Positions 24,599 through 46,357 of a stretch of DNA of 64,000 nt are shown here, piece after piece. Every line of letters begins with the position of its first letter. Position 1 is the first letter of the stretch. The notes under the pieces were generated by a model. The model saw only the letters and a list, made by a program, of their open reading frames with translations, had not been told where the DNA came from and searched no databases. The position numbers were made by a program, and so were the translations under genes. The stretch spans positions 14,581 to 78,580 of the forward strand of contig CAZLPF010000001.1 of the NCBI GenBank assembly GCA_964561365.1. Reading direction: 5' to 3'. This DNA comes from an uncultured Candidatus Saccharibacteria bacterium. GTDB taxonomy: Bacteria > Patescibacteriota > Doudnabacteria > UBA920.

Positions 24599-26497
24599 CT
24601 ACTCCCCTGCCCCGTAGAGCGGGAAGCGCGCGGTCAGCCTCCTGACCTTTTCGCGCGGGCCGAACACGAGCACGCCGAAGTGCTCGACCTCTGACAGGTC
24701 TTTCTTGCCGGTTTGCTCTACGACTTTTTTATCGCTCGTTGTTTCGATCATCTCGCGGGTGAACTCGGCCACCTCGAGGCCCGCGGCCTTGGCCTCGGCG
24801 GCGAGCTGCTGGATGTCTGCGCTCGAGTCCGCCTGCTTGATCATGATGGCGTGCTGGATGTTCAGCTTGATGCGCTTTTTGTCTTTCGTTTCTATTTCGT
24901 CCTTCATGAGCAGGCGGCGGCCGCTCCGCGCGCCGAAGGCGGCGTTCAGGTGCGCCACCGTGTTCAGCTCCTGCCAGGGCTCGAGCTTTGCGCCGCGGTT
25001 TATGAGCGCTACGGCCTCGCTGCCGCCGGTCTTTTTGCCGTCGCCCGCGCCGCGCATGTGGGGGAAGGTCACGGTTTCGCGGATGGACTTGTTCATGAGG
25101 AAGGCGAAAAACCGTTCTGACATGCCGAAGCCGAAGGCCGGCGGCATGCCGTACTCGAGCGCGGTGACGAAGTCTTCGTCGAGCATCTGGGCCTCGGCGT
25201 CGCCCTGGGCCCTCAGGCGCATCTGCTCTTCAAAGCGGGCGCGCTGGTCGTCGGCATCGTTGAGCTCGGCGAATGCGTTGCAGAGCTCTGACCCCCCGGC
25301 CACGACCTGGAAGCGCAAGACTTTGCGCGGGTTGCCCGGGTCGCGCTTCGAGAGCGGCGAAATATCCACGGGGTGGCCGGTCAGGAAGCACGGCTGCACG
25401 AGCTTGGGCCGTACCGTGCGCTTGTAAATGGCGTCAATGAGCCGGCCGGAGCCCAAAGAACCGGTATCCGGCACGCCGAGGGTGGCAGCTTTCGCGCGGA
25501 GCTCCTGCAGCCCAGCGGTATTGAGGTCAACTCCCGCGTGTTCCCGGAGCAGGTCGAAGTAGTCCAAGCGCGGGAACGGTTTCGACCAGTCTATTTCGCT
25601 GCCTTCGTACTTCGTGACAGCAGCTCCGCAGACCTTGGCGACGATTCCTTTGAAGAGCTCCTCGGTCAGGCGCATGCCGTCCTCGTGGTCGGCGAAGGCC
25701 CAGTAGAACTCCACGTCGTCGTACTCTTGGAGGTGGTCGCGGTCCATGCCCTCGTTGCGGAACAGACGGCCGATCTCGAAGATCTTGTCGTAGCCGGCCA
25801 CGAGCAGGCGCTTTAGGGCCAGCTCGAGGGAAATGCGGAGGTAAAAATCTTCGCCGAGGGCGTTGTAGTGGGTAATGAAGGGCTCGGCGTCGGCGCCCCC
25901 GGGAATGTGCTCGAGCACCGGCGTCTGGACCTCGAGGAAGCCGCGCGAGACGAGGAAGTTCCGCACGGTCTGCCAGAAGACGTTCTTTTTTACGAAGAGG
26001 TCTTTGACGTCGGGGTTCATGAGGATGTCGAGGTAGCGCTGCCGAAGGCGCGTTTCTTCGTCGGCTAAACCGAAGTATTCGGCCGGCAGTGGCCGGAGGG
26101 CTTTGCCGAGCACAATCACGGTCTTGGCTTCGAGCGAGCGCTCCCCCGTTTTCGTCAGCGTGGTTTGGCCGGCGGCTTCCACGAAGTCCCCTGCGTCGAG
26201 CGTCTCGACGAGGAGCTTAAAGGCTTCAGTCCCGACGTTCTCTTCTCGAACGAGCAGCTGCAGTTTGCCGGTACCGTCGTCAATGTGGGCGAAAGCGAGC
26301 TTTCCCATAACCCGGATGCTTCGCACCCGGCCGGCGAGGGTAAGATTTTTGCCCGCGAGCGCATCAAATTTTTCAAGCACCTCGCGAATTTCGTGGTCGC
26401 GGTTCGTGTGCGCCGGGTACAGCGGCACGCCGGCTTCCCCAAGCTTTTTCAGCTTGCCGCGCCGCACGTTCATGATGTCGTCGAGCCGTTCAGACAT
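24599..26497 (-). CDS. lysS: lysyl-tRNA synthetase (class II) with ~130-aa C-terminal extension domain
   Basis: 632 aa; N-terminal OB anticodon-binding fold; class II motifs 1-3; extra C-terminal domain ...LEPWQELNTVAHLNAAFGARSG...FGVLVFGPREKV absent from canonical ~500-aa LysRS. Confidence 0.85.
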   Translation of the reverse strand: MSERLDDIMNVRRGKLKKLGEAGVPLYPAHTNRDHEIREVLEKFDALAGKNLTLAGRVRSIRVMGKLAFAHIDDGTGKLQLLVREENVGTEAFKLLVETLDAGDFVEAAGQTTLTKTGERSLEAKTVIVLGKALRPLPAEYFGLADEETRLRQRYLDILMNPDVKDLFVKKNVFWQTVRNFLVSRGFLEVQTPVLEHIPGGADAEPFITHYNALGEDFYLRISLELALKRLLVAGYDKIFEIGRLFRNEGMDRDHLQEYDDVEFYWAFADHEDGMRLTEELFKGIVAKVCGAAVTKYEGSEIDWSKPFPRLDYFDLLREHAGVDLNTAGLQELRAKAATLGVPDTGSLGSGRLIDAIYKRTVRPKLVQPCFLTGHPVDISPLSKRDPGNPRKVLRFQVVAGGSELCNAFAELNDADDQRARFEEQMRLRAQGDAEAQMLDEDFVTALEYGMPPAFGFGMSERFFAFLMNKSIRETVTFPHMRGAGDGKKTGGSEAVALINRGAKLEPWQELNTVAHLNAAFGARSGRRLLMKDEIETKDKKRIKLNIQHAIMIKQADSSADIQQLAAEAKAAGLEVAEFTREMIETTSDKKVVEQTGKKDLSEVEHFGVLVFGPREKVRRLTARFPLYGAGE

Positions 26498-33324: not shown

Positions 33325-35715
33325 TTACCTGATTTCTGCCCCTAATTCCTGCTGTAATTGTAGCACGATTGCGCTGTAAATTCCAGCGACTTCGGCGTCG
33401 GTTAGGGTGCGGTTTTTAGCCCGAAAAACCACGCGGACGCCGAGGTTTTTTTGACCGCGCTCGGCCAGGTTTCTGTGGAATGTTTCGGTGCTCGCGGCGT
33501 GGGCAAAGTACGGCGCGTCGAAGACATCGACGGACTCAATGAGGCCGCTCACCGGCTTAACGGTTTCGGCAATGCGCTCCCACGGCAGCCCAGACGGTAC
33601 GATGATCGAAGCATCCCGGGCGATGCTCGGGTACTCGGGGTAGCTTTGGAACGTGGCATCCCGGGTGAGCTCGCCGAGGGCCTCGAGGAACAGCTCGCCG
33701 CTCGCGACGCTGCCGGTAATGTCGAACCGTTCACCGATGTCGGGCGAAACCACCTTGCAGGTGCCAATGGCAGTGTTCCCGGCCACCACGTCAGCGTAGC
33801 CTTCGCGCGGCTCGAAGCGGAGGCCGCGGATGCCGAGGTGTCCGAGCAGGCCGACGACGTCGCCCTTCAGCTGCGAAAGCAGCAGCTCTGGGGCGTCGGC
33901 CCTGCCGAAGCGGACGAGCGCGGCGACGCGGCGTTCCTGCTCGAAGCCCTCGAACTCGCGGGCGAGCTCGAACAGGGACAGGCGCGGCGCGTGCCGCTGG
34001 TTCAGGTTCACGTTGTTGAGGAGCGGGGCGAGCGCGTGCCGTTTTAAGAGCTCATGCTCGCGGCTCAGGGGGTTGTCGATGCGTACGTAGGCGGCCGGGT
34101 CCGCGCCGAGCTTCAGGACGTCGGCCTCGGAAACGAAACTGTAGTTGTGGACTTCGCGGTAGCCGAACGACACGAGCCGGTCCTGTACGCGCTCGTTCAA
34201 TTCGCCGATCGGGTCCGCCTCCGGCGCCCGGAGCATGGGCAAGGGGCGGGGCGAGAGCTTGTTGTAGCCGCGGAGCTTCATGACCTCTTCGGCAATGTCG
34301 CTCGCGTCCTTCACGTCGCGGCGCCACCACGGCGGGGCAACGCTAACGGCCGCCGCGGCCCCGCGACCAGTGACCTTGTGCGGGAGCATGAGTTTTTTGA
34401 GGCTGCCGGAAACTTCCGCCGGAGCCACGGAAACGCCGAGGAGGTTCGAAAGCGTGGCGATGCTCGCCGAAACCCGCGGCTGCGGCTGGGGCTTTTGGCC
34501 CGCGCTGCCGAAGGCTACCGGGACCGCGCCGGCGTGGGCTACGAGCAGCTCGAGGGCCGCCGCGAGACCGACGTCGGGCAGCTCCTGGGGCAGCCCGACC
34601 TCGTGGTTGGCCGCGCCGGCTTCGGTGCGCACCCCGAGCGCCCTCGTGGTGCGGCGAATTCCCGTCGGCTCGAAGTTCGAGGCGACGAGCACGATTTCGG
34701 TGGTGGCCGGTTCGACCCCGGTGTGGAGGCCGCCCATGATGCCCGCGACGTCGAGCGCCCGGCGCTCGTCGGCAATAACAACGGTTTCTGAATCCAGCTC
34801 GTAGCGTTTTTTGTTGAGCAGCTCAATGGGCTCACCGGGCCTGGCGTAGCGCACGACCATTTTCTCGCCGAGCTTGCTGCGGTCGAAGGCGTGGAGCGGC
34901 TGGCCCCAGAGCTGGGTGACGTAGTTGGTAACGTCGACGACGTTGCTGATCGGCTTGATGCCGAGCCGCACGAGCGCCTCGCGGATGAACGGCGGGCTGT
35001 CGCCGACTTTGACGCTCGAGAGCACCACGGCGCGGTGCTGGCGGCAGGCTTTCTTGGACTCAATGGTCACCGGGTACCTCGGGAGCTTCGCGAGGTTTTT
35101 CGGGAGCGCCGGTTCCGCGGCTTTCAGCGTTCCGCCGGAAATGGCCGCGAGCGCACGGGCGAAACCGACGTGCGAGCGCAGGTCGGGGCGGTTGGCCGGG
35201 AGGCTGACGTCGACGACCCAGTCGCCCGGCGGGTAGATTTCGGACAGCGGTTTTCCGAGCGGCGTCTTTTCCGGCAGAACGTGGATGGCGTGGTCGGTAT
35301 CCGTTTCGGCCAAGCAGAGCTCGAACGCCGCGCAGATCATGCCCTGGCTCTCGACCCCCCGGATGGCGGCGCGCTCGAGCACGGAGGGCCCGGCGGCCGG
35401 GTCCCGCACGCTCCGCGGAACCGTGCTGCCGGGGCGGGCGAGCGCCACGACCTGGCCTACTTTGAGGTTCGTACCCCCGCAAACCACCGGGTAGACAGTT
35501 TCGCCACCGAGGTCGAGCGACGCGACCTTCAGGCGGTCGGCGTTCGGGTGCGGCTCGAGCTTCGTTACCCGCGCGCTGAAAATGCCCGAGAGGTCGGCGC
35601 CGGCGGGTGTTACCGACTCAACCTCGGTCAGGTGCGCGGTTACGGTTTCGGCGAGCTCGTTCGGGGCTACGCGGAAGCTCGCGAGGGATTTGAGGATATG
35701 GTAGGAAAATTTCAT
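33325..35715 (-). CDS. pheT: phenylalanyl-tRNA synthetase beta subunit
   Basis: 796 aa; tRNA-binding OB, B3/B4, B5, catalytic-like and FDX-ACB domains. Confidence 0.9.
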   Translation of the reverse strand: MKFSYHILKSLASFRVAPNELAETVTAHLTEVESVTPAGADLSGIFSARVTKLEPHPNADRLKVASLDLGGETVYPVVCGGTNLKVGQVVALARPGSTVPRSVRDPAAGPSVLERAAIRGVESQGMICAAFELCLAETDTDHAIHVLPEKTPLGKPLSEIYPPGDWVVDVSLPANRPDLRSHVGFARALAAISGGTLKAAEPALPKNLAKLPRYPVTIESKKACRQHRAVVLSSVKVGDSPPFIREALVRLGIKPISNVVDVTNYVTQLWGQPLHAFDRSKLGEKMVVRYARPGEPIELLNKKRYELDSETVVIADERRALDVAGIMGGLHTGVEPATTEIVLVASNFEPTGIRRTTRALGVRTEAGAANHEVGLPQELPDVGLAAALELLVAHAGAVPVAFGSAGQKPQPQPRVSASIATLSNLLGVSVAPAEVSGSLKKLMLPHKVTGRGAAAAVSVAPPWWRRDVKDASDIAEEVMKLRGYNKLSPRPLPMLRAPEADPIGELNERVQDRLVSFGYREVHNYSFVSEADVLKLGADPAAYVRIDNPLSREHELLKRHALAPLLNNVNLNQRHAPRLSLFELAREFEGFEQERRVAALVRFGRADAPELLLSQLKGDVVGLLGHLGIRGLRFEPREGYADVVAGNTAIGTCKVVSPDIGERFDITGSVASGELFLEALGELTRDATFQSYPEYPSIARDASIIVPSGLPWERIAETVKPVSGLIESVDVFDAPYFAHAASTETFHRNLAERGQKNLGVRVVFRAKNRTLTDAEVAGIYSAIVLQLQQELGAEIR

Positions 35716-35756
35716 ATCGGTACCGTGTCGGTCCGGCGCGGGCCGAACGGGGAAGG

Positions 35757-37256
35757 TCAGTAGTTCTGGCAGCCGTCCTCTGAGCAGCGCACGCCCGTGG
35801 TTCCGGCCGACGGGTTCTGGAGTTCGGCGGTGAGCGTGAAGCTGTCGAGCTTGGTGCTCACCGTGTAGGCGTAGTCCTTTCCGCTCGTGGGGTCTTTCGG
35901 CAGGGAGGAAATGAACTTCGGTACGAGGTCAGACTTGTAACGGTCGGCACTCGGAAACATGAACGGCACCTCGGCGTCGGGGTCGGTCGTGCTCGCGGCC
36001 TTCGTCTGGCTGTAGAGGAGGAGGGCGCCGCGGAGGGTGTCGAGGTCGGCGCGGCGTCGCTCGTCGGCGAGGTCTGCCTCCTGGGTATCGAGGTACTTCT
36101 GGGCCTGCGCGGCTTTAATTTTAATGAGCTGGCCTTGGGTTTCGCTCTGGAAGGTGACCTGGAAGTCCTTGCCCCCCGAGAGGACCTGGTAGCCGTAGAC
36201 GTACGGGTCTTTGTTCACCGGGTCCTGGGCGTTGACCGCGACTTTCAGGAACGGCTTGACCTTGGCGTACGCGTCTGTGAAGGTTTTTACGTTCGGGTAG
36301 CTGCCGTGGTTCTGCTTGTAGCGGACGATGCCGACCGCCACGGTTGTTACCGCGTTGCTCCGGCGCGTGTCGCGGTCCTGCTTGGCTTCGGCAGACTGGT
36401 CGAAGCCCTTGAGCGCGTCCGGCGTGGCGGTAGCCTCAGTCGAGGTCGCCGGGGTGGACGTGGCGGGCGTCGAAGTAGCGGCCGTGGGCGTTGACGTCGG
36501 CTGGACGTAAATGGTCAGCAGGCCCGCGTGGATGGTGGCCACGGTCGGCTCGTGGAGCCCGAGGCTTCCGATCTTCATGACAATGTCCGCCACGCTCGCC
36601 GTTGAGAGCTTTGTGCTCGTCGGCCGCATGACGTCGTAGCCGCCATTGATGTACTGGCCGTCGTTGTACTCCGGGTCACTGGCGGTCCGGGGGTTAAGCG
36701 GATCGGTCAAAAAGACGTGGAGCTCGTCGCCGTCGGAAAGGCCGTCGGAGTCGGAGTCGGGGTTGTTCGGGTCGGTGCCGACGGTCTGCTCATCTACGTT
36801 CAGGAGCCCGTCGCGGTCCGGGTCGGCCTGCTCGCCGCAGAGCGTCAGCGGATCGCAGCCGGCCGCCCAGTAGCGGGCCGCCCAGGCCGGGTCGAGCTTC
36901 GGTTCGGCTACCTGGCCGGGCGTTTCGATCCCCGGCGCGGGCATGAGTTTTTTGAAAAGGTCCGGGTAGAAGTTCTGGTACGCGTACCAGCCGCCCCCGG
37001 CCAGCAGAGCCACGGCCAGGAACATGATAATCCTCGAGAGCGCGTGGCTGCCGCCGCTTGACGGCTGGAGGTGCTCGTCGGACATCATGATGGGGCTCTC
37101 GGGCGCCGCAGGCGCTTGCGCCGCGACCGGCGCGGCCGGAAGGCTGCCGGGCTGCACGACCTCTCCCCCGCCGCCGCGCGGCATAACGTCGTAGAAGAGC
37201 TCTTCGCCGGAACCTTGCGGTTCGCTCGGTAGGTTCGGTTTGCCTTGTGTGACCAT
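35757..37256 (-). CDS. membrane-anchored extracytoplasmic protein with Asp-rich Ca-binding (thrombospondin type-3-like) repeats, Thr/Pro-rich linker and C-terminal pilin-like domain
   Basis: 499 aa; TM RIIMFLAVALLAGGGWYAY; DPDRDGLLNVDEQTVGTDPNNPDSDSDGLSDGDE repeats; TSTPATSTPATST linker; pseudopilin-like VGIVRYKQNHGSYPN; terminal Cys pair CSEDGC; the N-terminal start is uncertain. Confidence 0.6.
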   Translation of the reverse strand: MVTQGKPNLPSEPQGSGEELFYDVMPRGGGGEVVQPGSLPAAPVAAQAPAAPESPIMMSDEHLQPSSGGSHALSRIIMFLAVALLAGGGWYAYQNFYPDLFKKLMPAPGIETPGQVAEPKLDPAWAARYWAAGCDPLTLCGEQADPDRDGLLNVDEQTVGTDPNNPDSDSDGLSDGDELHVFLTDPLNPRTASDPEYNDGQYINGGYDVMRPTSTKLSTASVADIVMKIGSLGLHEPTVATIHAGLLTIYVQPTSTPTAATSTPATSTPATSTEATATPDALKGFDQSAEAKQDRDTRRSNAVTTVAVGIVRYKQNHGSYPNVKTFTDAYAKVKPFLKVAVNAQDPVNKDPYVYGYQVLSGGKDFQVTFQSETQGQLIKIKAAQAQKYLDTQEADLADERRRADLDTLRGALLLYSQTKAASTTDPDAEVPFMFPSADRYKSDLVPKFISSLPKDPTSGKDYAYTVSTKLDSFTLTAELQNPSAGTTGVRCSEDGCQNY

Positions 37257-37269
37257 TTTTATTTTACGT

Positions 37270-38238
37270 TTAAAACTGCTTGAGGAAGCGTACGTCGTTC
37301 TCCATGAGGAGGCGGATGTCCGGAATGCCGTACTTCATGAGCGCGAAGCGCGACAGGCCGAGGCCAAAGGCGAAACCCTGGTAGCGGCCGCGCCGGTAGC
37401 CGGCGGCCTCGAAGACGTTCTGGTGCACGGCGCCGCAGCCGAGGATTTCCACCCACCTGCCGTCCCGGAAGCGCGGGCTCGACATGGCGACTTCGGCGCC
37501 GGGTTCGACGAACGGGAAGTAGGCGGGCTGGAGCCGCGTGGTAACGTCAGACCCGAAAAAGCGCTTCAAGACGTAGTCGAGCGTCCAGGCCATGGTAGAG
37601 AAGCTCACGTCGGGGCCCACGGCCAGACCCTCCATTTGGTAGAAGGTGTGCTCGTGGGTCGCGTCGGTGGCTTCGTTGCGGAAGACCTTGCCCGCGCTGA
37701 TGACGGAGAACGGCGGCTCGTGGGTCTGCATGTAGCGGATTTGCACCGGCGAGGTCTGGGTGCGCATGACGAGCGGCTGCCCGGCCGACTGGACGTAGAA
37801 GGTGTCCTGGGCGTCGCGCGCCGGGTGCAGCGGCGGCATGTTGAGCGCGGTGAAGTTGTACCAGTCGCTCTCGAGCTCGAAGCCGTGCGCCGTGGAAAAC
37901 CCCAAGCCGCGGAAAATGTTCGTCAGCTCGCGCTCGATTACGGTCATGGGGTGGAGCGAGCCGGCGTTCGGGAGCGCGGGCGGGACGGTCAGGTCGACCT
38001 CCCGCTCGGCCAGGCGCACGTTCGAGGCCGCCTCCACGCGTGTGCGGAGCTCGTTCAGGTGCCGCCCGACCTCCCGGCGCCCCTCGCCGGGGAGTTTCAT
38101 GAGGCGCTCGAAAGCCGCCGTGAGCAGGCCGTGCTTGCGGCTGAGGTACTTCTGGCGGAGCTCCTCGCCGACCACGCCGCTGGCGAGGTCCCTGGCGAGC
38201 TGCTCGGCAATGTCTTCCGGCGGCAGCGCTTCGTTCAC
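37270..38238 (-). CDS. pheS: phenylalanyl-tRNA synthetase alpha subunit
   Basis: 322 aa; class II motifs; FRNE...GLGLSRFAL C-terminal core. Confidence 0.9.
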   Translation of the reverse strand: MNEALPPEDIAEQLARDLASGVVGEELRQKYLSRKHGLLTAAFERLMKLPGEGRREVGRHLNELRTRVEAASNVRLAEREVDLTVPPALPNAGSLHPMTVIERELTNIFRGLGFSTAHGFELESDWYNFTALNMPPLHPARDAQDTFYVQSAGQPLVMRTQTSPVQIRYMQTHEPPFSVISAGKVFRNEATDATHEHTFYQMEGLAVGPDVSFSTMAWTLDYVLKRFFGSDVTTRLQPAYFPFVEPGAEVAMSSPRFRDGRWVEILGCGAVHQNVFEAAGYRRGRYQGFAFGLGLSRFALMKYGIPDIRLLMENDVRFLKQF

Positions 38239-38609
38239 AGGTTCAAAAAAATTTCAATGGCGACAGCAACGAGGACGAGGCTCCCGAACACCCACCAGAC
38301 CAGGAGCCCGTCGGCCGAGAGCGCGAGGCTCGCAACCGAGAGCGAGCCGAGTAGCGCCCCTTGCCGCACGCTCGCGGTCAGGGTGTCGAGGTAGGCGCCG
38401 CCCATGCGGCTGCGGACCGCGAGCCCGAGCAGGGAGCAGATACCGGTCGAAAAAATCCAAACGCTCACGTAGAGGAACGCGAACGTGAGCCAGCTCGCCC
38501 GGGCGGGGTCTGAGTACACGGCGGTGGCGGCGACCGAGGCTCCCGACAGCAGGGTGCTGACCAGGAGGTGGCCGACGTACCGTTTTTCTTTAAACCAACT
38601 CGTCACCAT
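38235..38609 (-). CDS. polytopic small membrane protein, unknown function
   Basis: 124 aa; 4 predicted TM segments; ATGA overlap with the pheS start. Confidence 0.45.
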   Translation of the reverse strand: MVTSWFKEKRYVGHLLVSTLLSGASVAATAVYSDPARASWLTFAFLYVSVWIFSTGICSLLGLAVRSRMGGAYLDTLTASVRQGALLGSLSVASLALSADGLLVWWVFGSLVLVAVAIEIFLNL

Positions 38610-38642
38610 AGTACCATATTTCCTTTGGGTTTGCGGGGCGCT

Positions 38643-41621
38643 TCAGGCTAGGTGCCGGTAGGCGCAGCGGTGGTCGCGGACCTTCTCGTGCTCTTCTGAA
38701 AAGAGGTCGAACTCGGTCACGTGGACGATCCGCTCAATGGTTTTCAGGAAGCCGTCCTTGAGCTCCCCGAGGCGCTCGGGGGTCGCGAGCTCTTCTTCCA
38801 CGAGCTGGTCGGGGCAGAGGTACCAGTAGGTCATGCCGGCGACGGGTTCGCTCAGGAACTCCTCGGCCGCCCACTGGTAAATGTAGAGCTGGTCGAGGTC
38901 CGGCTTGTCGGACTTCTCGGGGACCTTTTCCCCGGTTTTGTAGTCAAAAATGTAGAGCCCGCCGTGGGTTTCGTCCATGCGGTCGATGCGGCCGGTGAAC
39001 TGGTACGGCCCGAGCGGCAGCTTGAAGGGCTGCTCTAAGTATTTCGGCGTGGGCGTGCGCGCTTCGGAGCGCCGGTAGAAGTGCTCGAGGACGCTCTGCC
39101 CGCGCGCGCGGTACTCGGCTTTCTGAATTTTCGTTTTGTACCACTCGTCGATCCAGCACTCGTCGTAGAGCTCGGCGAGCCGCTCCTTTGGCGGCAGGAC
39201 CGGCGCCGCCGGGGCGGCGGCGAATAGGTCGGCCTGCGCGCCGGCCCCCGCTCCCCTGAACTCTTTCAGGTAGCGCTCGAGCACCCGGTGGATGGTTTGG
39301 CCGAAGCTCAGGGCGGCCGAGCCCGGGCTCGGCATCTTTAGGTAGTACTGGTACTTGTACTGCAGCGGGCAGGTTTCGAAGGCCCGGAGCGCCGAGTAGG
39401 AAAACTTCGTCGGCAGGTCTTTGTACACGGCTTTCTTGGCCGTGGGCGCGGTCTGCCCGAACACCACGCGGCCGGTGGCCTTCGTCCCCTCTTTCGGCGC
39501 CGGCAAAAGGCCCGACTCTACGAGGAACGGCGACGGTTTTTTGAGCGTCTTTCCGCCGTAGTCCTTGGCCCACGAAAGGTAGAGGTGGCGCTTGGCCCGC
39601 GTGACGGCGACGTAGAACAGCCGGCGCTCTTCTTCGAGGTGGAAGTCGCCGCTCGGCAGCTGGTCTTTAATGAGCGCGGCCGGCAGCTCGAGGCTCTCGC
39701 CGCGCGCGCGGGTCGGGAATCGCTGCTCGACCATGCCGACGACGAAGACGTAGGTGAACTCCAGGCCCTTGGCCGAGTGCACGGTCATGACCTTCGCGCT
39801 CTCGGGGCCCAGGTTCGGGTCCTGCTGAATCTGGCCTTCGTCACCAGCTTCGAGCCGAAGGTCGAGCTCGTGCAGGAAACCGTGCACGCCCCGGTCTGCG
39901 CTCCGCTGCACGAACTCCTCAACCTGGCGGTAGAACTGCTCGAGCAGCTCGCGGTTCTCCACGTTCTCCGGCGTCTCTTCTTTCAGCAGGTCTTCGACGT
40001 GGAGGTCGGACACCGCCTCGACGAAGACCTCGTTCGCCCCGCGCGTTTGGGCGGCCGCCGCGTGCTTCTGCACGAGCTCGACGAGCGCCGCCGCCCGCCG
40101 CGCGGCCTCGGGGGAGAGCCCGTCGACTTCCCGGGCCCGCGCGGCGACCTCGAACAGCGAGCGCGTGCGCTTGACCGACTCCTGGAGCAGGAGCGCGAGC
40201 TCCTGGGGTTCGAGCTTCCAGTGCGGAAGCTGCAGGGCCCGGTACATGGCGGCCGGGTCGTGGACGTTCACGAGCAGCCGCAGGTAGCTAATGAGGTCCG
40301 AGATGAGCGTTTTCCGGTAGAGGCCGGTGCTGGCCACGAAGGTGTGCGGCACGCCGTAGGCGGCCAGGACCGGCAGCAGCTCTTCGGCCCCGGCGTTGCT
40401 GCGCACGAGCACGCCGAAGTCGTTCCAGGAAGCCTGGTCCCCCGCCCCGTCTTTCAGCGCGATCATTTTTTTAACCACGAGGTGCAGCTCTTCGGTCTGG
40501 TCCGTGCCCTCGATGACCGCCACGACGCCTGCTTCCTTCGCGGAGGCCTTGAGGCGCTTGTCTATGCCGAGGGCTACCTCGAGCCGGTCGGGGTTGTTGT
40601 GCTGTATGAAGTTGTAAGCCAGGTCCAAAATGTTCTGGCTCGAGCGGTAGTTCTCCACGAGCGTCACCTGGGCGGCGCTCGGGTAGTCTTTGCGGAACGC
40701 CAGGATGTTCGAAACCGAGGCGCCGCGGAACTTGTAAATGGACTGGTCGTCATCGCCGACCACGGTCAGGTTCTGGTGCTTCTGGGCTATGAGCTTCACG
40801 AGCTCGTACTGGGCGTAGTTCGTGTCCTGGAACTCGTCGACGAGCACGAGCTTGAACTTGTCCTGGTAGCGCGCGAGGACCGCCGGCCGCTCGCGGAAGA
40901 GCTTGAGCGCGTAGGAAATGAGGTCGCCGAAGTCCAGGGCGCCGGCGCCCAGCAGCAGGCGCTGGTAGGTGTGGTAGGCATTCGCGAGCTCCGTGGCCCG
41001 TGCCGCTTCCCCGCTGGCCGGACCTTCGGTGGCAACATCGGCGTTGGCCTTGAGCCCTCCGGCGTACTTCAGGTAGTCGTCGGGGGTTATGAGCTCGTCC
41101 TTGCAGCGCGAGAAGTGCTTGAGCATAGCCGAAATGAACTTCGATGGGTTCCCGAGGGGCCGGTAGTAGTCGAGCTCAAACTGGTGGAGGTTGTCGTGGA
41201 CGAGGACCCACTGCTCGGCTTCGGTCAGGAGCCGGAAGTTGTCCGGCAGGCCGACCTCGAGCCCCCGCTCTTCCAGCACGCGCTGGCAGAAGCTGTGGAA
41301 GGTCGAGATCCAGGTGTCGGCGTAGCCTAGGGGGAGTATCAAGTCCACGCGCTCGCGCATTTCGGTCGCGGCCTTTTCGGTGAACGTCAGGGCGAGGATT
41401 TCTTCGGGTTTGGCGAGATTGCCGGAAACCGCGCGGGCGATGCGCCGCGTTATGACGGTGGTCTTGCCCGTGCCGGCGCCGGCGACAATGAGCAGCGGCC
41501 CGGCCCCGCGGGTCACGGCCTCGGCCTGCCGTTCGTTTAAGCCTTCGAGCAAGCCGTCTCCGCCGGCCGGCGGAGACGGCTTCTCGACCTTCGCCGGTTT
41601 CTTTTTGCGCTCAGCTGCCAT
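38643..41621 (-). CDS. ATP-dependent DNA helicase (UvrD/PcrA/AddA-type SF1) fused to C-terminal PD-(D/E)xK RecB-family nuclease
   Basis: ~992 aa from MAAERKKK (41621; the earlier ATG would overlap the PIN gene); Walker A AGAGTGKTTV; SF1 motifs; C-terminal nuclease motifs GRIDRMDE, FDYKTG, QLYIYQ. Confidence 0.8.
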   Translation of the reverse strand: MAAERKKKPAKVEKPSPPAGGDGLLEGLNERQAEAVTRGAGPLLIVAGAGTGKTTVITRRIARAVSGNLAKPEEILALTFTEKAATEMRERVDLILPLGYADTWISTFHSFCQRVLEERGLEVGLPDNFRLLTEAEQWVLVHDNLHQFELDYYRPLGNPSKFISAMLKHFSRCKDELITPDDYLKYAGGLKANADVATEGPASGEAARATELANAYHTYQRLLLGAGALDFGDLISYALKLFRERPAVLARYQDKFKLVLVDEFQDTNYAQYELVKLIAQKHQNLTVVGDDDQSIYKFRGASVSNILAFRKDYPSAAQVTLVENYRSSQNILDLAYNFIQHNNPDRLEVALGIDKRLKASAKEAGVVAVIEGTDQTEELHLVVKKMIALKDGAGDQASWNDFGVLVRSNAGAEELLPVLAAYGVPHTFVASTGLYRKTLISDLISYLRLLVNVHDPAAMYRALQLPHWKLEPQELALLLQESVKRTRSLFEVAARAREVDGLSPEAARRAAALVELVQKHAAAAQTRGANEVFVEAVSDLHVEDLLKEETPENVENRELLEQFYRQVEEFVQRSADRGVHGFLHELDLRLEAGDEGQIQQDPNLGPESAKVMTVHSAKGLEFTYVFVVGMVEQRFPTRARGESLELPAALIKDQLPSGDFHLEEERRLFYVAVTRAKRHLYLSWAKDYGGKTLKKPSPFLVESGLLPAPKEGTKATGRVVFGQTAPTAKKAVYKDLPTKFSYSALRAFETCPLQYKYQYYLKMPSPGSAALSFGQTIHRVLERYLKEFRGAGAGAQADLFAAAPAAPVLPPKERLAELYDECWIDEWYKTKIQKAEYRARGQSVLEHFYRRSEARTPTPKYLEQPFKLPLGPYQFTGRIDRMDETHGGLYIFDYKTGEKVPEKSDKPDLDQLYIYQWAAEEFLSEPVAGMTYWYLCPDQLVEEELATPERLGELKDGFLKTIERIVHVTEFDLFSEEHEKVRDHRCAYRHLA

Positions 41622-41632
41622 GAAAAAAATTG

Positions 41633-42085
41633 TTAGGTCCGGCGCTGGCCGGAAATGAAGCTCGCCCACTTGTTCCAGAGGTCCTGGCCCTCGTCTTTGT
41701 AGTTGGCCCAGAACTGCTGCGGCCGGACTATGCGCACGCCCCGGTAGCGCTCTATGGAGAGCAGGTCGTTGTCCGAGGTCACGAGGTAGTCGGCCCGGGC
41801 CTCGACCGCGCTCTCGAGGATTTTATTGTCCTCGCGGTCGCGCACGATCCGCACCTGGCGGTAGTTCGGCACGTCCGAGACCTGCGCGAAGAACTCGTTC
41901 AGCTCCCGCTTGTAGTCGTCGTTGTCCACCACCTGCCTGAGGAGCAGCTTGTTCTCGCGGAGCGTCTGCTTGTTCGCGAAGGCCTCAATCTCCCCGCGCG
42001 CCACCGCGTCGATGATCTTCTTCTCGTAGCTGTACTCGTCGCGGAAGCCGTCGATGAGCACGTTCGTATCTAAAACGATTTTCAC
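41633..42085 (-). CDS. PIN-domain protein (VapC-like nuclease fold), no cognate antitoxin evident
   Basis: GTG start overlaps the TGA of the NYN gene (GTGA); ~150 aa; KIVLDTNVLID and LVTSDNDLL acidic motifs. Confidence 0.65.
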   Translation of the reverse strand: MKIVLDTNVLIDGFRDEYSYEKKIIDAVARGEIEAFANKQTLRENKLLLRQVVDNDDYKRELNEFFAQVSDVPNYRQVRIVRDREDNKILESAVEARADYLVTSDNDLLSIERYRGVRIVRPQQFWANYKDEGQDLWNKWASFISGQRRT

Positions 42086-42639
42086 TGCTCGTGCGGCTTG
42101 GCGAAGTCGTCGCGGGTCTTCATGGGCACCTTCGGCTGCCGCAGGAACTTGCCCTGGTCCTCGTCCATGTCCACGAAGCGCTCGGCGGCCTCGCGCAGCT
42201 TGCCCGAGCACGAGCGCCCGAAGGTCACGACCTCGAAGCCCACCCCGAGCTCCTTGAGGTACTCGGCGAGGGGCAGGTAGTCGCCGTCGCCGCTGCACAG
42301 GACAATGGTGTCCACCGCCGGAATGGTCCGGATAATGTCTACGGTCAGCCCCACGTCCCAGTCTCCTTTCTGCTGCCCGCCGGCGAACGTCTGGAGCTCT
42401 TTGACCTTGAGCTGCCAGCCGCCCTTCTGGAGGGCGTCGAAGAAGGTGTGCTCGAGCGGCTCCTTGGCCTGCACGACGTAGGCCATGGCCCGCGCCAGGT
42501 GCCGGCCGTTTACGGCCGCGGCTAGGACCGCGTTGAAGTCGACCCGCTTGCTGTAGAGGTAGCGGGCGCTGTAGTAGAGGTTCTGGACGTCGGCGAACAC
42601 GCCGACGCGCTGGTAGCGGACGTCAGGGGAAATGTTCAT
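42082..42639 (-). CDS. NYN-domain (LabA/Rae1-like) predicted ribonuclease
   Basis: 185 aa; VGVFADVQNLYYSAR; IVLCSGDGDYLPLAEYLKELG; ATGA overlap with the rmuC stop. Confidence 0.7.
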   Translation of the reverse strand: MNISPDVRYQRVGVFADVQNLYYSARYLYSKRVDFNAVLAAAVNGRHLARAMAYVVQAKEPLEHTFFDALQKGGWQLKVKELQTFAGGQQKGDWDVGLTVDIIRTIPAVDTIVLCSGDGDYLPLAEYLKELGVGFEVVTFGRSCSGKLREAAERFVDMDEDQGKFLRQPKVPMKTRDDFAKPHEQ

Positions 42640-43676
42640 GTGCGGTCGGTCAGGAGCGGGTCGGGTTCGGGCTTGGCCTCGACCTGGAGGTTGGCCGCGT
42701 TCTCAATGCTGCCGCGGAGCTTCATGAAATCCGTGCTGACCGTGCCCATCATGTTGCCGGCGTTCTTTATGTGCACCGAGAGCTTGTCTAGGTTGTCGCC
42801 GAACTTGTCGCTCTCTTTCTTCATGCCGGAAATCATGTTCAGGAGCTGGCCGGCGGCTTTGTTCATCTGCTGGCCGCGGAGCGAAATTAAGATGCTCTTG
42901 AGCAGCAGGTGGAGGCTGTTGGGGCCGGCCATGAAGATCTGTTTGCTCCGCGCGTACTCCGAGGCTTCGGACGACTGGGAGATTTCCTGGAACACGCCCT
43001 CGCCGGGGACGAACATGACCGCGTACTCGAGCGTGCCCTCCTGCGGCAGAATGTACTTTTTGTGGATTTCGTCGATGCGCTTCTTCACGTCTTTCAGGAA
43101 GGCTTTGCGCAGGGTGTCCTGGCTGTCGGGGGTGCCGGCTTCCTGGAGCAGCCGGAAGTTCTCGAGCGAGAATTTGCTGTCGACCGAGAGCATGCGCCGC
43201 TCTTCGCCGACCCATACCACGGCGTCTACCACCTCGCCGCTCTTGAAGCGGTACTGGGCCTCGAAGCCGCCCTGCGGCAGCACCTGCTGGAGCAGGTTCT
43301 CGAGCAGCTCTTCGCCGAAGTTGCCGCGCATTTTGCTGTTGGCGAGCGTTTCGGTCAGCCGCTTTATGTCCGGGCCAATGTTCTGCTGGACCTGCGAGAG
43401 TTGGCCGAGCTCGCGCTGCAGCAGCGAAATGACCTTGGCGGCGTTGTCGAGCCGCTCGTTTATGGCTTTGTTCGTTTCGTTCAGGCTCTGCTGGGTGCCC
43501 TCGCGGATGCTGTCCGTGCCCTGCTTTATCTCTTTCATCCACTCCATCATGACCCCGAGGGCCTGGTTGTCCTGGGGTTGGTTGAGCCTAGCTTTCAGCT
43601 GCCAGACCACGTAGAGCAGGACCCCGATTGCAAGTAAAACTATGGCCCCGAGCGCAAATAAAACTTGGGTATTCAT
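42636..43676 (-). CDS. rmuC: DNA recombination protein RmuC
   Basis: 346 aa; N-terminal TM; long coiled coil; RmuC C-terminal domain (YAVMFVPGEGVF...); TACAAT six nt upstream of the ATG (leaderless-type). Confidence 0.8.
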   Translation of the reverse strand: MNTQVLFALGAIVLLAIGVLLYVVWQLKARLNQPQDNQALGVMMEWMKEIKQGTDSIREGTQQSLNETNKAINERLDNAAKVISLLQRELGQLSQVQQNIGPDIKRLTETLANSKMRGNFGEELLENLLQQVLPQGGFEAQYRFKSGEVVDAVVWVGEERRMLSVDSKFSLENFRLLQEAGTPDSQDTLRKAFLKDVKKRIDEIHKKYILPQEGTLEYAVMFVPGEGVFQEISQSSEASEYARSKQIFMAGPNSLHLLLKSILISLRGQQMNKAAGQLLNMISGMKKESDKFGDNLDKLSVHIKNAGNMMGTVSTDFMKLRGSIENAANLQVEAKPEPDPLLTDRT

Positions 43677-43737
43677 GGCTTAATTGTAACATAAACGCCA
43701 CCTTTTTCATTACCCATTTCAGCCCAATCACCCGTGC

Positions 43738-43770
43738 TAAATCGAAACCGGCACCCACGGGAGTGCCGGT
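43738..43770 (-). terminator. rho-independent terminator after the 43794..44081 gene
   Basis: ccggcac-N9-gtgccgg stem followed by TTTCGATTT on the minus strand. Confidence 0.4.
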
Positions 43771-44644: not shown

Positions 44645-44650
44645 TATAAA

Positions 44651-44686
44651 AAAACCGGTCAACCTTTTGGCCGGTTTTTTTATTTA
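44651..44686. terminator. bidirectional rho-independent terminator
   Basis: accggtcaa-cctt-ttggccggt (9-bp stem with one G-U pair) followed by T7 on the plus strand and a T-tract on the minus strand; between hsp20 and the AT-rich gene. Confidence 0.6.
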
Positions 44687-45313
44687 TTATTGATAGCTTA
44701 TTATCTCCGAGCTATCATCGAGCTCCTTAAATAACTGAGTTGTCGAATAATTTGTATTATAGGCATCATAATAATTTATTTGGATTTTTAATCCAGGCAA
44801 TCCTGCGGACTTGGCAGCTTTTAAGAATTCCATCAAAACTAATCCTGTAACCGGTTTACCTAAATTATCTAAAACGATTGTACCTGCTTTGTCAGGCACA
44901 ACGACTGTCTTGTTTAAAAAAGTTAATATTTTATTTGAATCTAGTGGGCTTATTATTGGAGCCATTTTAACATTGCGAGCAAGACCATTCCCAACATTTT
45001 TCAAGTAAAAAAACGATTCTTGTTTATCAAAATTTGAAATTATAAAAGGGGCTCGCTGAAAATTGTATTGCTTAATATTTACTTCCTTAAGATCATGCGT
45101 CTCTTTTGTATAAATCAAAACAACAATTCCAGTAAAGGAGATAACGTAAATATTTACTTTATCTTTTAGCTCTTCATTTCCAAGAATTTGCTGAAAAACA
45201 CAAACTAGTAGGATTGAAAGTAAAAAAATTGCCCAGCTGCAAAAATCAAGAGTTGTCTTTCTTTTTAAGAAGGAATTAACTTCCCCTATTTTTTTATCTA
45301 GAAATATAAACAT
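44687..45313 (-). CDS. hypothetical membrane protein encoded by a very AT-rich (foreign-looking) gene
   Basis: ~208 aa from ATG 45313 (ORF-track TTG at 45322); N-terminal TM helices FCSWAIFLLSILLVCVF and VNIYVISFTGIVVLIY plus ~120-aa soluble C-domain with no recognisable motif; GC ~30% by eye vs ~65% in flanks; starts 9 nt after the stop of the Rcl-Nudix gene. Confidence 0.55.
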   Translation of the reverse strand: MFIFLDKKIGEVNSFLKRKTTLDFCSWAIFLLSILLVCVFQQILGNEELKDKVNIYVISFTGIVVLIYTKETHDLKEVNIKQYNFQRAPFIISNFDKQESFFYLKNVGNGLARNVKMAPIISPLDSNKILTFLNKTVVVPDKAGTIVLDNLGKPVTGLVLMEFLKAAKSAGLPGLKIQINYYDAYNTNYSTTQLFKELDDSSEIISYQ

Positions 45314-45322
45314 GTTTAACAA

Positions 45323-46357
45323 TTATTTAAAAAGCAAATTTATTAAGATTTGCTGTTCATCAAAAACAAATTTATTTGCCTTAGCTTTTATTAGTGGAAG
45401 CCAGTAGGCGCGGTCGAGGTCCCATTCGGATCGGCGGATGGGATCTTGTATTACCCCGGTGCGGTAGGTAGCTTTTCGGACGAGGGCGATGATACGGTTG
45501 TTGCCGCCGTTTCGGTTGTAGCTCCAAGTGTAGGTGCCTAAAGTGGCATCGCTCGGCGAAACTTCCACACCTGTTTCTTCCTTTACCCGTTGGGTCAACG
45601 CCTGGTCAGGGTCTACGCCAGTGGCGAGCATTTTGCCGCCGGGGAGCGCGTACTTGCCGCGGACTTTTTTTGAAACGTTCTTTCGGTCCGCGTACTTTAT
45701 GACCAGCATGCCGCGGTCTTTGTCGGTCACCACGACCTTTTGGGCAATGTAGGACCGGCTGTTTGAAGAATTTTGCATCAAATGGCTGTCGAGGTACGGG
45801 TAGCTGGTGCGGTAGTAGCCCACGGCGTCGTCTATGACGCTCAGGCTCTTAAAGATGCTCTCGCTCCCCCACCGCAGCTTCAGGTAGCTGATCAGTTCGT
45901 TAAAGTCGTGCAGGACTACGTCGCACGGGACGCTCACGAACGGGTGTACCCAGTTCCGGTGCGTGGTGCCGTTTAGGGTGAAGCTGTCTTTTACGAATTT
46001 GCTGCCGCGCGCGGCCAAACCTACCAGGGGCTTTCCGTAGTACTTGGCTATGAGCATTTCCTGCGATCCGCCGACGGAAATGTCGTCGCTCAGGTACACG
46101 AGCACCAGGTCGGCTTTGGAAATGAGGAAGCAGTCGCGGCCGAAAATGGCTTTCGGGTCGGTTTCCGGCAGGCTGCGGCCGTCCCGGGTGCGGGCGGGGT
46201 CGAGGTGCGTTACGTTCATGCTGGTAGCTGCTGAAAGGCGGCTGCACAGCTCGTCGCGCCAGCGTTCGGTGCCGAACGAAGAGTTCCCGGAGACTTTTCC
46301 GGCTACGTAGAGCGTCAGGTTTTTGGTGTCTTTCGGCATAGCTTCCGTTGACGGCAT
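45323..46357 (-). CDS. fusion protein: N-terminal nucleoside 2-deoxyribosyltransferase/Rcl(DNPH1)-like domain plus C-terminal Nudix hydrolase domain
   Basis: 344 aa; SD GGGGGTGA upstream of ATG 46357; N-domain LYVAGKVSG...ADLVLVYLSDDISVGGSQEMLIAKYYGKPLVGL (family signature with catalytic Glu); C-domain Nudix box GGKMLATGVDPDQALTQRVKEETGVEV; GC intermediate (~57% by eye); the 3' end runs into the AT-rich tract. Confidence 0.65.
   Translation of the reverse strand: MPSTEAMPKDTKNLTLYVAGKVSGNSSFGTERWRDELCSRLSAATSMNVTHLDPARTRDGRSLPETDPKAIFGRDCFLISKADLVLVYLSDDISVGGSQEMLIAKYYGKPLVGLAARGSKFVKDSFTLNGTTHRNWVHPFVSVPCDVVLHDFNELISYLKLRWGSESIFKSLSVIDDAVGYYRTSYPYLDSHLMQNSSNSRSYIAQKVVVTDKDRGMLVIKYADRKNVSKKVRGKYALPGGKMLATGVDPDQALTQRVKEETGVEVSPSDATLGTYTWSYNRNGGNNRIIALVRKATYRTGVIQDPIRRSEWDLDRAYWLPLIKAKANKFVFDEQQILINLLFK

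Follow-up and report, generated by a model that had tools for sequence, protein, structure and literature searches.

Why should genes for RmuC, for a LabA-like NYN protein, for a PIN-domain protein and for a helicase fused to a nuclease stand one behind another on the same strand of a bacterial genome? We addressed this question in a stretch of 64,000 nucleotides (nt), hereafter the window, from an uncultured Candidatus Saccharibacteria bacterium placed by GTDB among the Doudnabacteria (contig CAZLPF010000001.1, positions 14,581 to 78,580), in which the four genes form a quartet. Our analysis suggests, with a probability of about one half, that the quartet is a housekeeping DNA repair or recombination operon, that is, a single leaderless core-genome unit of a Doudnabacteria-like member of the candidate phyla radiation (CPR). 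RmuC and the LabA-like NYN proteins are widespread and mechanistically obscure, and DNA-end processing in CPR bacteria is poorly characterised; a fixed operon would tie both families to a self-contained helicase-nuclease and to a PIN protein that lacks an antitoxin, yielding a defined set of four proteins. The combination of genes is new, all its components belong to known families, and its function is what we infer; a search of the literature for the combination returned nothing, in agreement with the preliminary description of this DNA, which had called the functional link undescribed.

Reading of the open reading frames (ORFs) and comparison with Pfam and NCBIfam profiles gave all four genes, their strand, their junctions and their families as first described (Table 1). 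The stop codon of rmuC and the start codon of the NYN gene overlap as ATGA, the stop codon of the NYN gene overlaps the GTG start of the PIN gene as GTGA, and 11 nt lie between the TAA of the PIN gene and the ATG of the helicase gene. Membership is clear for RmuC (180.6 bits against a cut-off of 26), for NYN (107.1 bits against 24.2) and for PIN (68.5 bits, E 1.2e-18, for PF13470, and 53.5 bits against a cut-off of 29.15 for TIGR00305). The fourth protein, a helicase of superfamily 1A (SF1A) with a nuclease domain, combines UvrD-helicase (E 1e-81), UvrD_C (4e-51) and PDDEXK_1 (6.5e-31) with intact motifs. In favour of GTG as the start codon of the PIN gene, the N-terminal residues MKIVLDTN match, one by one, those of orthologues that start with ATG.

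Table 1. Positions of the quartet, its predicted signals and its surroundings in the window, followed by loci of other CPR lineages that carry the long-form PIN (aa, amino acids)
Feature	Position or locus	Strand	Remarks
Terminator-like hairpin	43747-43770	minus	after upstream 95-aa gene; 10-bp stem, 7 GC pairs, T-rich tail
rmuC promoter (predicted)	43683-43710	minus	weak -35-like ATGAAA (43705-43710); extended -10 TGtTACAAT (43683-43691), TACAAT at 43683-43688
rmuC	42636-43676	minus	346 aa; PF02646, E 4.8e-53
rmuC/NYN overlap	42636-42639		ATGA
NYN (LabA-like) gene	42082-42639	minus	185 aa; PF01936, E 1.5e-30
NYN/PIN overlap	42082-42085		GTGA
Long-form PIN_3 gene	41633-42085	minus	150 aa, GTG start; PF13470 and TIGR00305
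PIN stop codon	41633-41635		TAA
Helicase start codon	41619-41621		ATG
Helicase-nuclease gene	38643-41621	minus	992 aa; UvrD/PcrA-type SF1A helicase with C-terminal RecB-family PD-(D/E)XK nuclease; PF00580, PF13361, PF12705
Part encoding the nuclease domain	38643-39470
Extended -10-like TGgTACTAT	38608-38616	minus	in the 33-nt spacer after the helicase gene, before TM124
TM124	38235-38609
Full pheS, pilin-like 499-aa gene, full pheT	33325-38238
Long ORFs preceded by TGnTAnAnT-N6-ATG	5035; 26497; 48611	plus; minus; minus
Low-GC patch	44645-45398		about 0.75 kb, GC 0.26-0.34; about 1 kb upstream of rmuC
ORF in the patch	44687-45322		211 aa, no family
Synthetase-DUF2000 fusion gene	24599-26497	minus	class II aminoacyl-tRNA synthetase (tRNA-synt_2 and OB anticodon domain), C-terminal DUF2000
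PIN beside the helicase-nuclease	L169, L170		PIN, then helicase-nuclease
PIN near the helicase-nuclease	L092, L099		PIN, SLT_2-like gene, helicase-nuclease (36-44% identical to that of the window)
PIN with RmuC and LexA	L163-165		RmuC, LexA on opposite strand, PIN fused to coiled coil and SLT_2-like domain
PIN fusions with coiled coil and weak SLT_2-like (lytic transglycosylase) domain	L163:8001-9665; L164:1585-3303; L165:4334-6064		see also L099:8499-9782
PIN with exonuclease VII and UvrA	L172-174		PIN, 47-aa ORF, XseA, XseB, DoxX, UvrA
Solitary PIN	L166-168		between DUF5679 and sortase gene
Solitary PIN	L083, L087, L089, L095		ychF on one side, ABC transporter or folD gene on the other (neighbours Pfam-annotated in L083 and L087)
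PIN beside mscL	L082		PIN, then mscL

How constant is this arrangement? Relatives were sampled at one genome per species by a scan anchored on the PIN orthologue, which returned 80 Doudnabacteria loci (L002-L081). Conservation of the gene order and integrity of the PIN and NYN active sites were the points on which the preliminary description had hung its proposal, and both came out in its favour: the 73 loci whose flanking DNA suffices all keep the order RmuC-NYN-PIN-helicase on one strand (contig ends truncate the remaining 7), and the acidic residues of PIN and NYN are invariant, not degenerate. Indeed, none of the four proteins varies in its catalytic motifs, namely, the PD-(D/E)XK motif of RmuC (D...DSK; 72 sequences), the motifs DVQN, GDWDV and SGDGD of NYN (75 sequences), helicase motifs I-VI with the nuclease motifs GxIDRxD, DYKT and QLxxY, and, across 50 diverse PIN sequences of 27-70% identity, residues D6, T7, N8, E44, D86, K88, D105 and W137, which include all four acidic active-site residues (D6, E44, D86 and D105). 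Median identity to the window's protein is 56% for RmuC, 58% for NYN, 64% for PIN and 54% for the helicase-nuclease; among the neighbours it is 77% for GyrB and 37% for both TM124 and the pilin-like gene, and the value for PIN, set against these, points to strong purifying selection. PIN homologues of 65-72% identity come from Patescibacteria, mostly from metagenome-assembled genomes of Candidatus Doudnabacteria. The window, with a G+C content (GC) of 0.65 against 0.33-0.50 in the 80 related loci, represents an unusually GC-rich, Doudnabacteria-like bacterium in which the operon is at its most compact; the GC of the quartet is the native 0.65, and the distance from the start of rmuC to the end of the helicase gene is 5.0 kb (minimum 4.9 kb and median 5.9 kb in the relatives).

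Translational coupling, first put forward as a trait of the quartet, is found in the window genome and a minority of the relatives and is not a property of the cluster as such: an overlap or a gap of at most 20 nt is present between rmuC and NYN in 21 of 76 relatives, between NYN and PIN in 23 of 79, and between PIN and the helicase gene in 30 of 78. In most relatives, larger gaps of 0.3-2 kb hold heterogeneous small genes; the recurrent inserted families, all on the operon strand, are PDDEXK_3/GxxExxY (at all three junctions), DUF559, 23S_rRNA_IVP, MazG-like and pilin-like. An apparent fusion of PIN and helicase in L074 and L075 proved to be an artefact, the DNA having a TAA stop codon and, 3 nt further on, an ATG. 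In 7 Doudnabacteria loci (L032, L063, L066, L073, L074, L075 and L081), the helicase-nuclease gene is followed by the exonuclease VII genes xseA-xseB.

The extent of the presumed transcription unit can be approached through its signals. In the window, the predicted hairpin downstream of the 95-aa gene marks the 5′ boundary of the unit; the TACAAT box before rmuC, with its upstream TG, ends 6 nt short of the ATG, with no Shine-Dalgarno sequence; a scan of the quartet detected neither a promoter-like match nor a minus-strand terminator-like match inside it; and the second extended -10-like motif, behind the helicase gene, is probably the promoter of the next unit (TM124, pheS and downstream genes), marking the 3′ boundary. 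We counted the motif TGnTAnnnT within -70 to +15 of the projected start of each gene, where the background is 8.6%. It precedes rmuC in 67 of 72 relatives and TM124 in 56 of 59, and occurs at background level before NYN (3/75), PIN (5/80) and the helicase-nuclease gene (7/77). The rates at rmuC and TM124, set against those at the inner genes, suggest one leaderless unit of exactly four genes, with TM124 opening a separate unit that in the window genome would include pheS and pheT. Thus, co-oriented genes, one promoter and no internal promoter or terminator are what we find, on motif evidence only, as expected of an operon.

That the operon runs on into pheS/pheT, as the preliminary description had it, is probably not the case, given the extended -10 motif before TM124 in the window and nearly all relatives; full pheS/pheT are not seen at the downstream position in most relatives. 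The window itself has full pheS before and full pheT after the pilin-like 499-aa gene, an arrangement encountered elsewhere only in L016, L061 and L069, and in most relatives this position offers no more than a PheS-like ORF (about 30% identity) and an ORF of about 110 aa with a tRNA-binding domain. Conversely, the claim of a leaderless-type promoter gains from the comparison: in 54 of 63 relatives, a distance of 4-10 nt, in most cases exactly 6 nt, separates the end of the TAnnnT box of rmuC from the ATG, and a Shine-Dalgarno sequence is missing in all but one of the relatives inspected for this box. A -10 box, 6 nt and an ATG without a Shine-Dalgarno sequence, kept in most relatives, would give rmuC a leaderless-type mRNA. 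The geometry TGnTAnAnT-N6-ATG also precedes three long ORFs of the window, and, because these share it, it appears to be a genome-wide habit; in the form TGnTAnAAT-N6-ATG, it offers a usable model of promoters and leaderless starts for annotating these uncultured genomes.

What, then, could the four products do? The motor of the helicase-nuclease is closest, among solved structures, to UvrD/PcrA (about 318 bits), followed by AdnB (170), AddA (103) and RecB (61), so that of the initial label, AddA/PcrA-RecB-like, the PcrA part and the RecB-type nuclease stand, and AddA and RecB are much farther from the core. The protein misses every NCBIfam equivalog cut-off to which it was compared (pcrA, 479 against 911; uvrD, 384 against 1144; addA, 192 against 708; recB, 151 against 696). 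Within the nuclease domain, the only invariant cysteines are C751 and C986, and H984 is invariant as well; because only two cysteines are invariant, the four-cysteine iron-sulphur (Fe-S) set of the AddB/Cas4 type is not present, and these three residues might pin the ends of the domain together as the Fe-S cluster does in AddB/Cas4. No partner of the AddB, AdnA, RecC or RecD kind is encoded in the quartet, and a scan of the ten largest ORFs in the rest of the window gave none. RmuC consists of an N-terminal hydrophobic helix (residues ~5-25) followed by the PD-(D/E)XK nuclease domain. In about 15 relatives (L012, L013, L020, L028, L030, L033, L039, L050, L052, L056, L059, L062, L064, L077 and L079), the rmuC slot behind the same leaderless-type promoter is filled by a second type of RmuC, about 30% identical to that of the window and still within PF02646, which looks like a replacement in situ.

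The PIN protein differs from toxin-type PIN_3 proteins in a C-terminal helix of about 25 residues (~122-146) that contains the invariant Trp. As first noted, no antitoxin gene precedes it, the overlapping upstream gene being that of the conserved 185-aa NYN enzyme. We considered and rejected a type II toxin-antitoxin module of the VapBC kind, given that no small antitoxin gene adjoins PIN, which elsewhere is solitary or beside repair genes, and the distribution of PIN, which occupies one and the same locus in every one of the 80 related genomes with 56-71% identity, does not fit a patchy mobile toxin-antitoxin locus.

A full HMMER scan delineated a wider long-form PIN family, that is, PIN_3 plus the C-terminal helix with the invariant Trp, in other CPR lineages (Table 1). 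Of 12 distinct contexts, approximately 5 have PIN directly beside DNA-repair genes, which, at a rough estimate and with lineages that are not wholly independent of one another, is well above the level of a random gene. This recurrence of PIN beside RmuC, LexA, the helicase-nuclease, XseAB or UvrA supports repair as the best reading of the quartet. In L099 and L092, the SLT-like part, which is fused to PIN in L163-165, has a gene of its own, placed between those of PIN and the helicase-nuclease.

We propose that the unit would process broken or branched DNA. The UvrD/PcrA-like motor, with a RecB-type nuclease of its own, would unwind and resect DNA ends or gaps in the manner of AddA or AdnB, albeit as a single chain; RmuC, as a membrane-anchored PD-(D/E)XK nuclease, would cut branched or inverted-repeat DNA; and NYN and a domesticated PIN_3, both small Mg2+ nucleases of the PIN fold, could trim flaps, single strands or RNA-DNA hybrids. 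The start/stop overlaps would provide for co-translation in the compact, high-GC window genome, with the relatives keeping co-transcription alone.

Several points weigh against a repair operon. The transcription unit is deduced from motifs; neither the window nor the Doudnabacteria loci contain a LexA gene, and no LexA-box-like motif or shared palindrome is found near the rmuC promoters; NYN is tied to the other three genes only in Doudnabacteria; and in at least 4 other CPR lineages the long-form PIN stands alone, with unrelated neighbours (ychF, ABC transporter, sortase, mscL). Furthermore, PIN and NYN may act on RNA, and the conservation of order within one class could be inheritance alone; the two principal alternatives grow from these last two points.

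In the first, RmuC and the helicase-nuclease act on DNA, and NYN and PIN are housekeeping RNases, engaged in RNA maturation or decay, that are co-transcribed with them only through the packing of unrelated genes into long co-directional units in a tiny genome. Knowledge of the NYN superfamily comes mainly from RNases, and the closest solved structure to the NYN protein of the quartet, matched over its full length, has no assigned function (VPA0982, PDB 2QIP; E 1.5e-24). A sequence search of the PDB with PIN gave nothing significant; the AlphaFold2 model (pLDDT 84.8) shows a PIN fold like those of VapC and HARP, followed by a long C-terminal helix of low confidence, and its best structural matches, VapC toxins and the protein-only RNase P HARP, all cleave RNA, as could PIN and NYN given these affinities. 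However, these matches are weak and generic (E about 1e-3, 13-18% identity), and therefore no substrate can be assigned from them. Gene neighbourhoods speak on both sides: the long-form PIN adjoins the gene of the ribosome-associated ATPase YchF in four loci, and NYN adjoins a DEAD-box RNA helicase gene on one Pseudomonas aeruginosa plasmid, but NYN neighbourhoods on proteobacterial chromids and plasmids, outside the CPR, reveal no constant partner, and the long-form PIN repeatedly adjoins DNA-repair genes in independent lineages, to the extent noted above. A partner common to Vibrio and Pseudomonas was considered and rejected, the ORF beside the Vibrio NYN being unrelated to the DEAD-box helicase. 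On balance, we regard such a mixed operon as unlikely.

Alternatively, there might be no functional link at all, with synteny inherited within one class accounting for the quartet and genome compaction for the overlaps. Order conservation alone cannot single out the quartet because, in nearly all relatives, the syntenic block continues past it, by way of TM124 and the pilin-like gene, as far as gyrB. Moreover, tight coupling is limited to approximately a quarter to 40% of the relatives, the junctions freely admit unrelated genes, and PIN is solitary in several other lineages. Against this, the promoter motifs delimit exactly these four genes in ~93-95% of the relatives, the inserted genes are always co-oriented, and lineages that lack the rest of the block again show PIN with the helicase-nuclease, as well as PIN with RmuC, in rearranged settings. 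Mere co-inheritance thus strikes us as quite improbable.

The preliminary description had also pointed to a resemblance to anti-phage systems, which turns out to be generic. Among the PADLOC models, the helicase matches GajB (E 2.4e-104), RmuC weakly matches the DRT-associated RmuC (1.6e-12), and NYN gives a weak match, and PADLOC, run as had been suggested, recognised no defence system at the locus and neither GajA nor any other component in the neighbourhood. PIN has no match in phage records; no long-form PIN is present among the IMG/VR viral contigs, where only short-form PIN_3 of 26-34% identity was found, or in the plasmid collection, where only short-form toxin PINs were found, often beside AbrB/MazE antitoxins. 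That an RmuC domain can mediate defence is seen in Shield, known only from Pseudomonas, where ShdA acts with the partners ShdB-E (PMC10270631); these partners, including the M15-peptidase-like ShdB, bear no relation to NYN, PIN or the helicase. Hence, even with the variability of the junctions and of a neighbouring site in its favour, a defence system analogous to Gabija, Shield or the RmuC-associated DRT is very hard to reconcile with GajB matches that any UvrD helicase would give, with a core position that is the same in every relative and never patchy, with high sequence conservation and with native GC.

The reading as a repair operon can be carried one step further, although only as a speculation to which we give little weight: a toxin-type PIN_3 might have been domesticated early in the CPR as a stand-alone repair nuclease that works physically with the UvrD-RecB helicase-nuclease and the membrane-anchored RmuC, joined by NYN in Doudnabacteria, the whole amounting to a CPR-specific substitute for RecBCD/AddAB. 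If true, this would place RmuC and the LabA-like NYN proteins, two families that have long lacked an explanation, in a concrete biochemical setting. Already on the plain repair reading, the PIN of the quartet illustrates clearly how a nuclease from a toxin family can be taken into core service.

Farther from the quartet, an Rfam scan of the window returned tRNAs only. The low-GC patch upstream of rmuC contains, besides the ORF listed in Table 1, the 3′ end of a NUDIX-fusion gene; it appears to be a strain-variable cassette because a contig that is 95-97% identical to the window (L001) holds an unrelated low-GC segment of 478 nt at the matching site. Elsewhere in the window, an aminoacyl-tRNA synthetase is fused to DUF2000.

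How does the quartet compare with known systems? With AddAB, AdnAB and RecBCD, it shares the SF1A UvrD-like motor and the C-terminal RecB-family PD-(D/E)XK nuclease on one chain, with the motifs GxIDRxD, DYK and QxxxY; unlike those complexes, it has a single 992-aa chain with a core nearer to UvrD/PcrA, below the equivalog cut-offs and devoid of the four-cysteine Fe-S set, and no gene for AddB, AdnA, RecC or RecD in the unit. With Gabija (GajA/GajB), the common element is a UvrD-like helicase accompanied by nuclease activity, but GajA, an OLD-family ATPase-TOPRIM protein, is absent here and the resemblance lies at the level of the UvrD superfamily, the solved GajB chains of about 495 residues matching only query residues ~30-94. 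RmuC shares with Escherichia coli RmuC (YigN) and with ShdA of Shield the PF02646 family and the conserved PD-(D/E)XK motif, and with ShdA also the N-terminal membrane helix; in Shield, however, the partners are ShdB-E rather than NYN, PIN and a helicase-nuclease, and here RmuC is the product of a core gene, not of an island gene, with no defence-system match. NYN has in common with the LabA-like protein of PDB 2QIP the conserved Asp motifs, and, whereas the proteobacterial homologues have no constant neighbour, it is fixed here between rmuC and PIN. Finally, PIN shares the fold and the four acidic residues with the PIN_3 (TIGR00305) toxins of VapBC-type modules, those of plasmids being 30-34% identical to it, but it comes without an antitoxin gene, carries the additional C-terminal helix with the invariant Trp and, with 56-71% identity across the whole class, resides at a fixed locus among DNA-repair neighbours.

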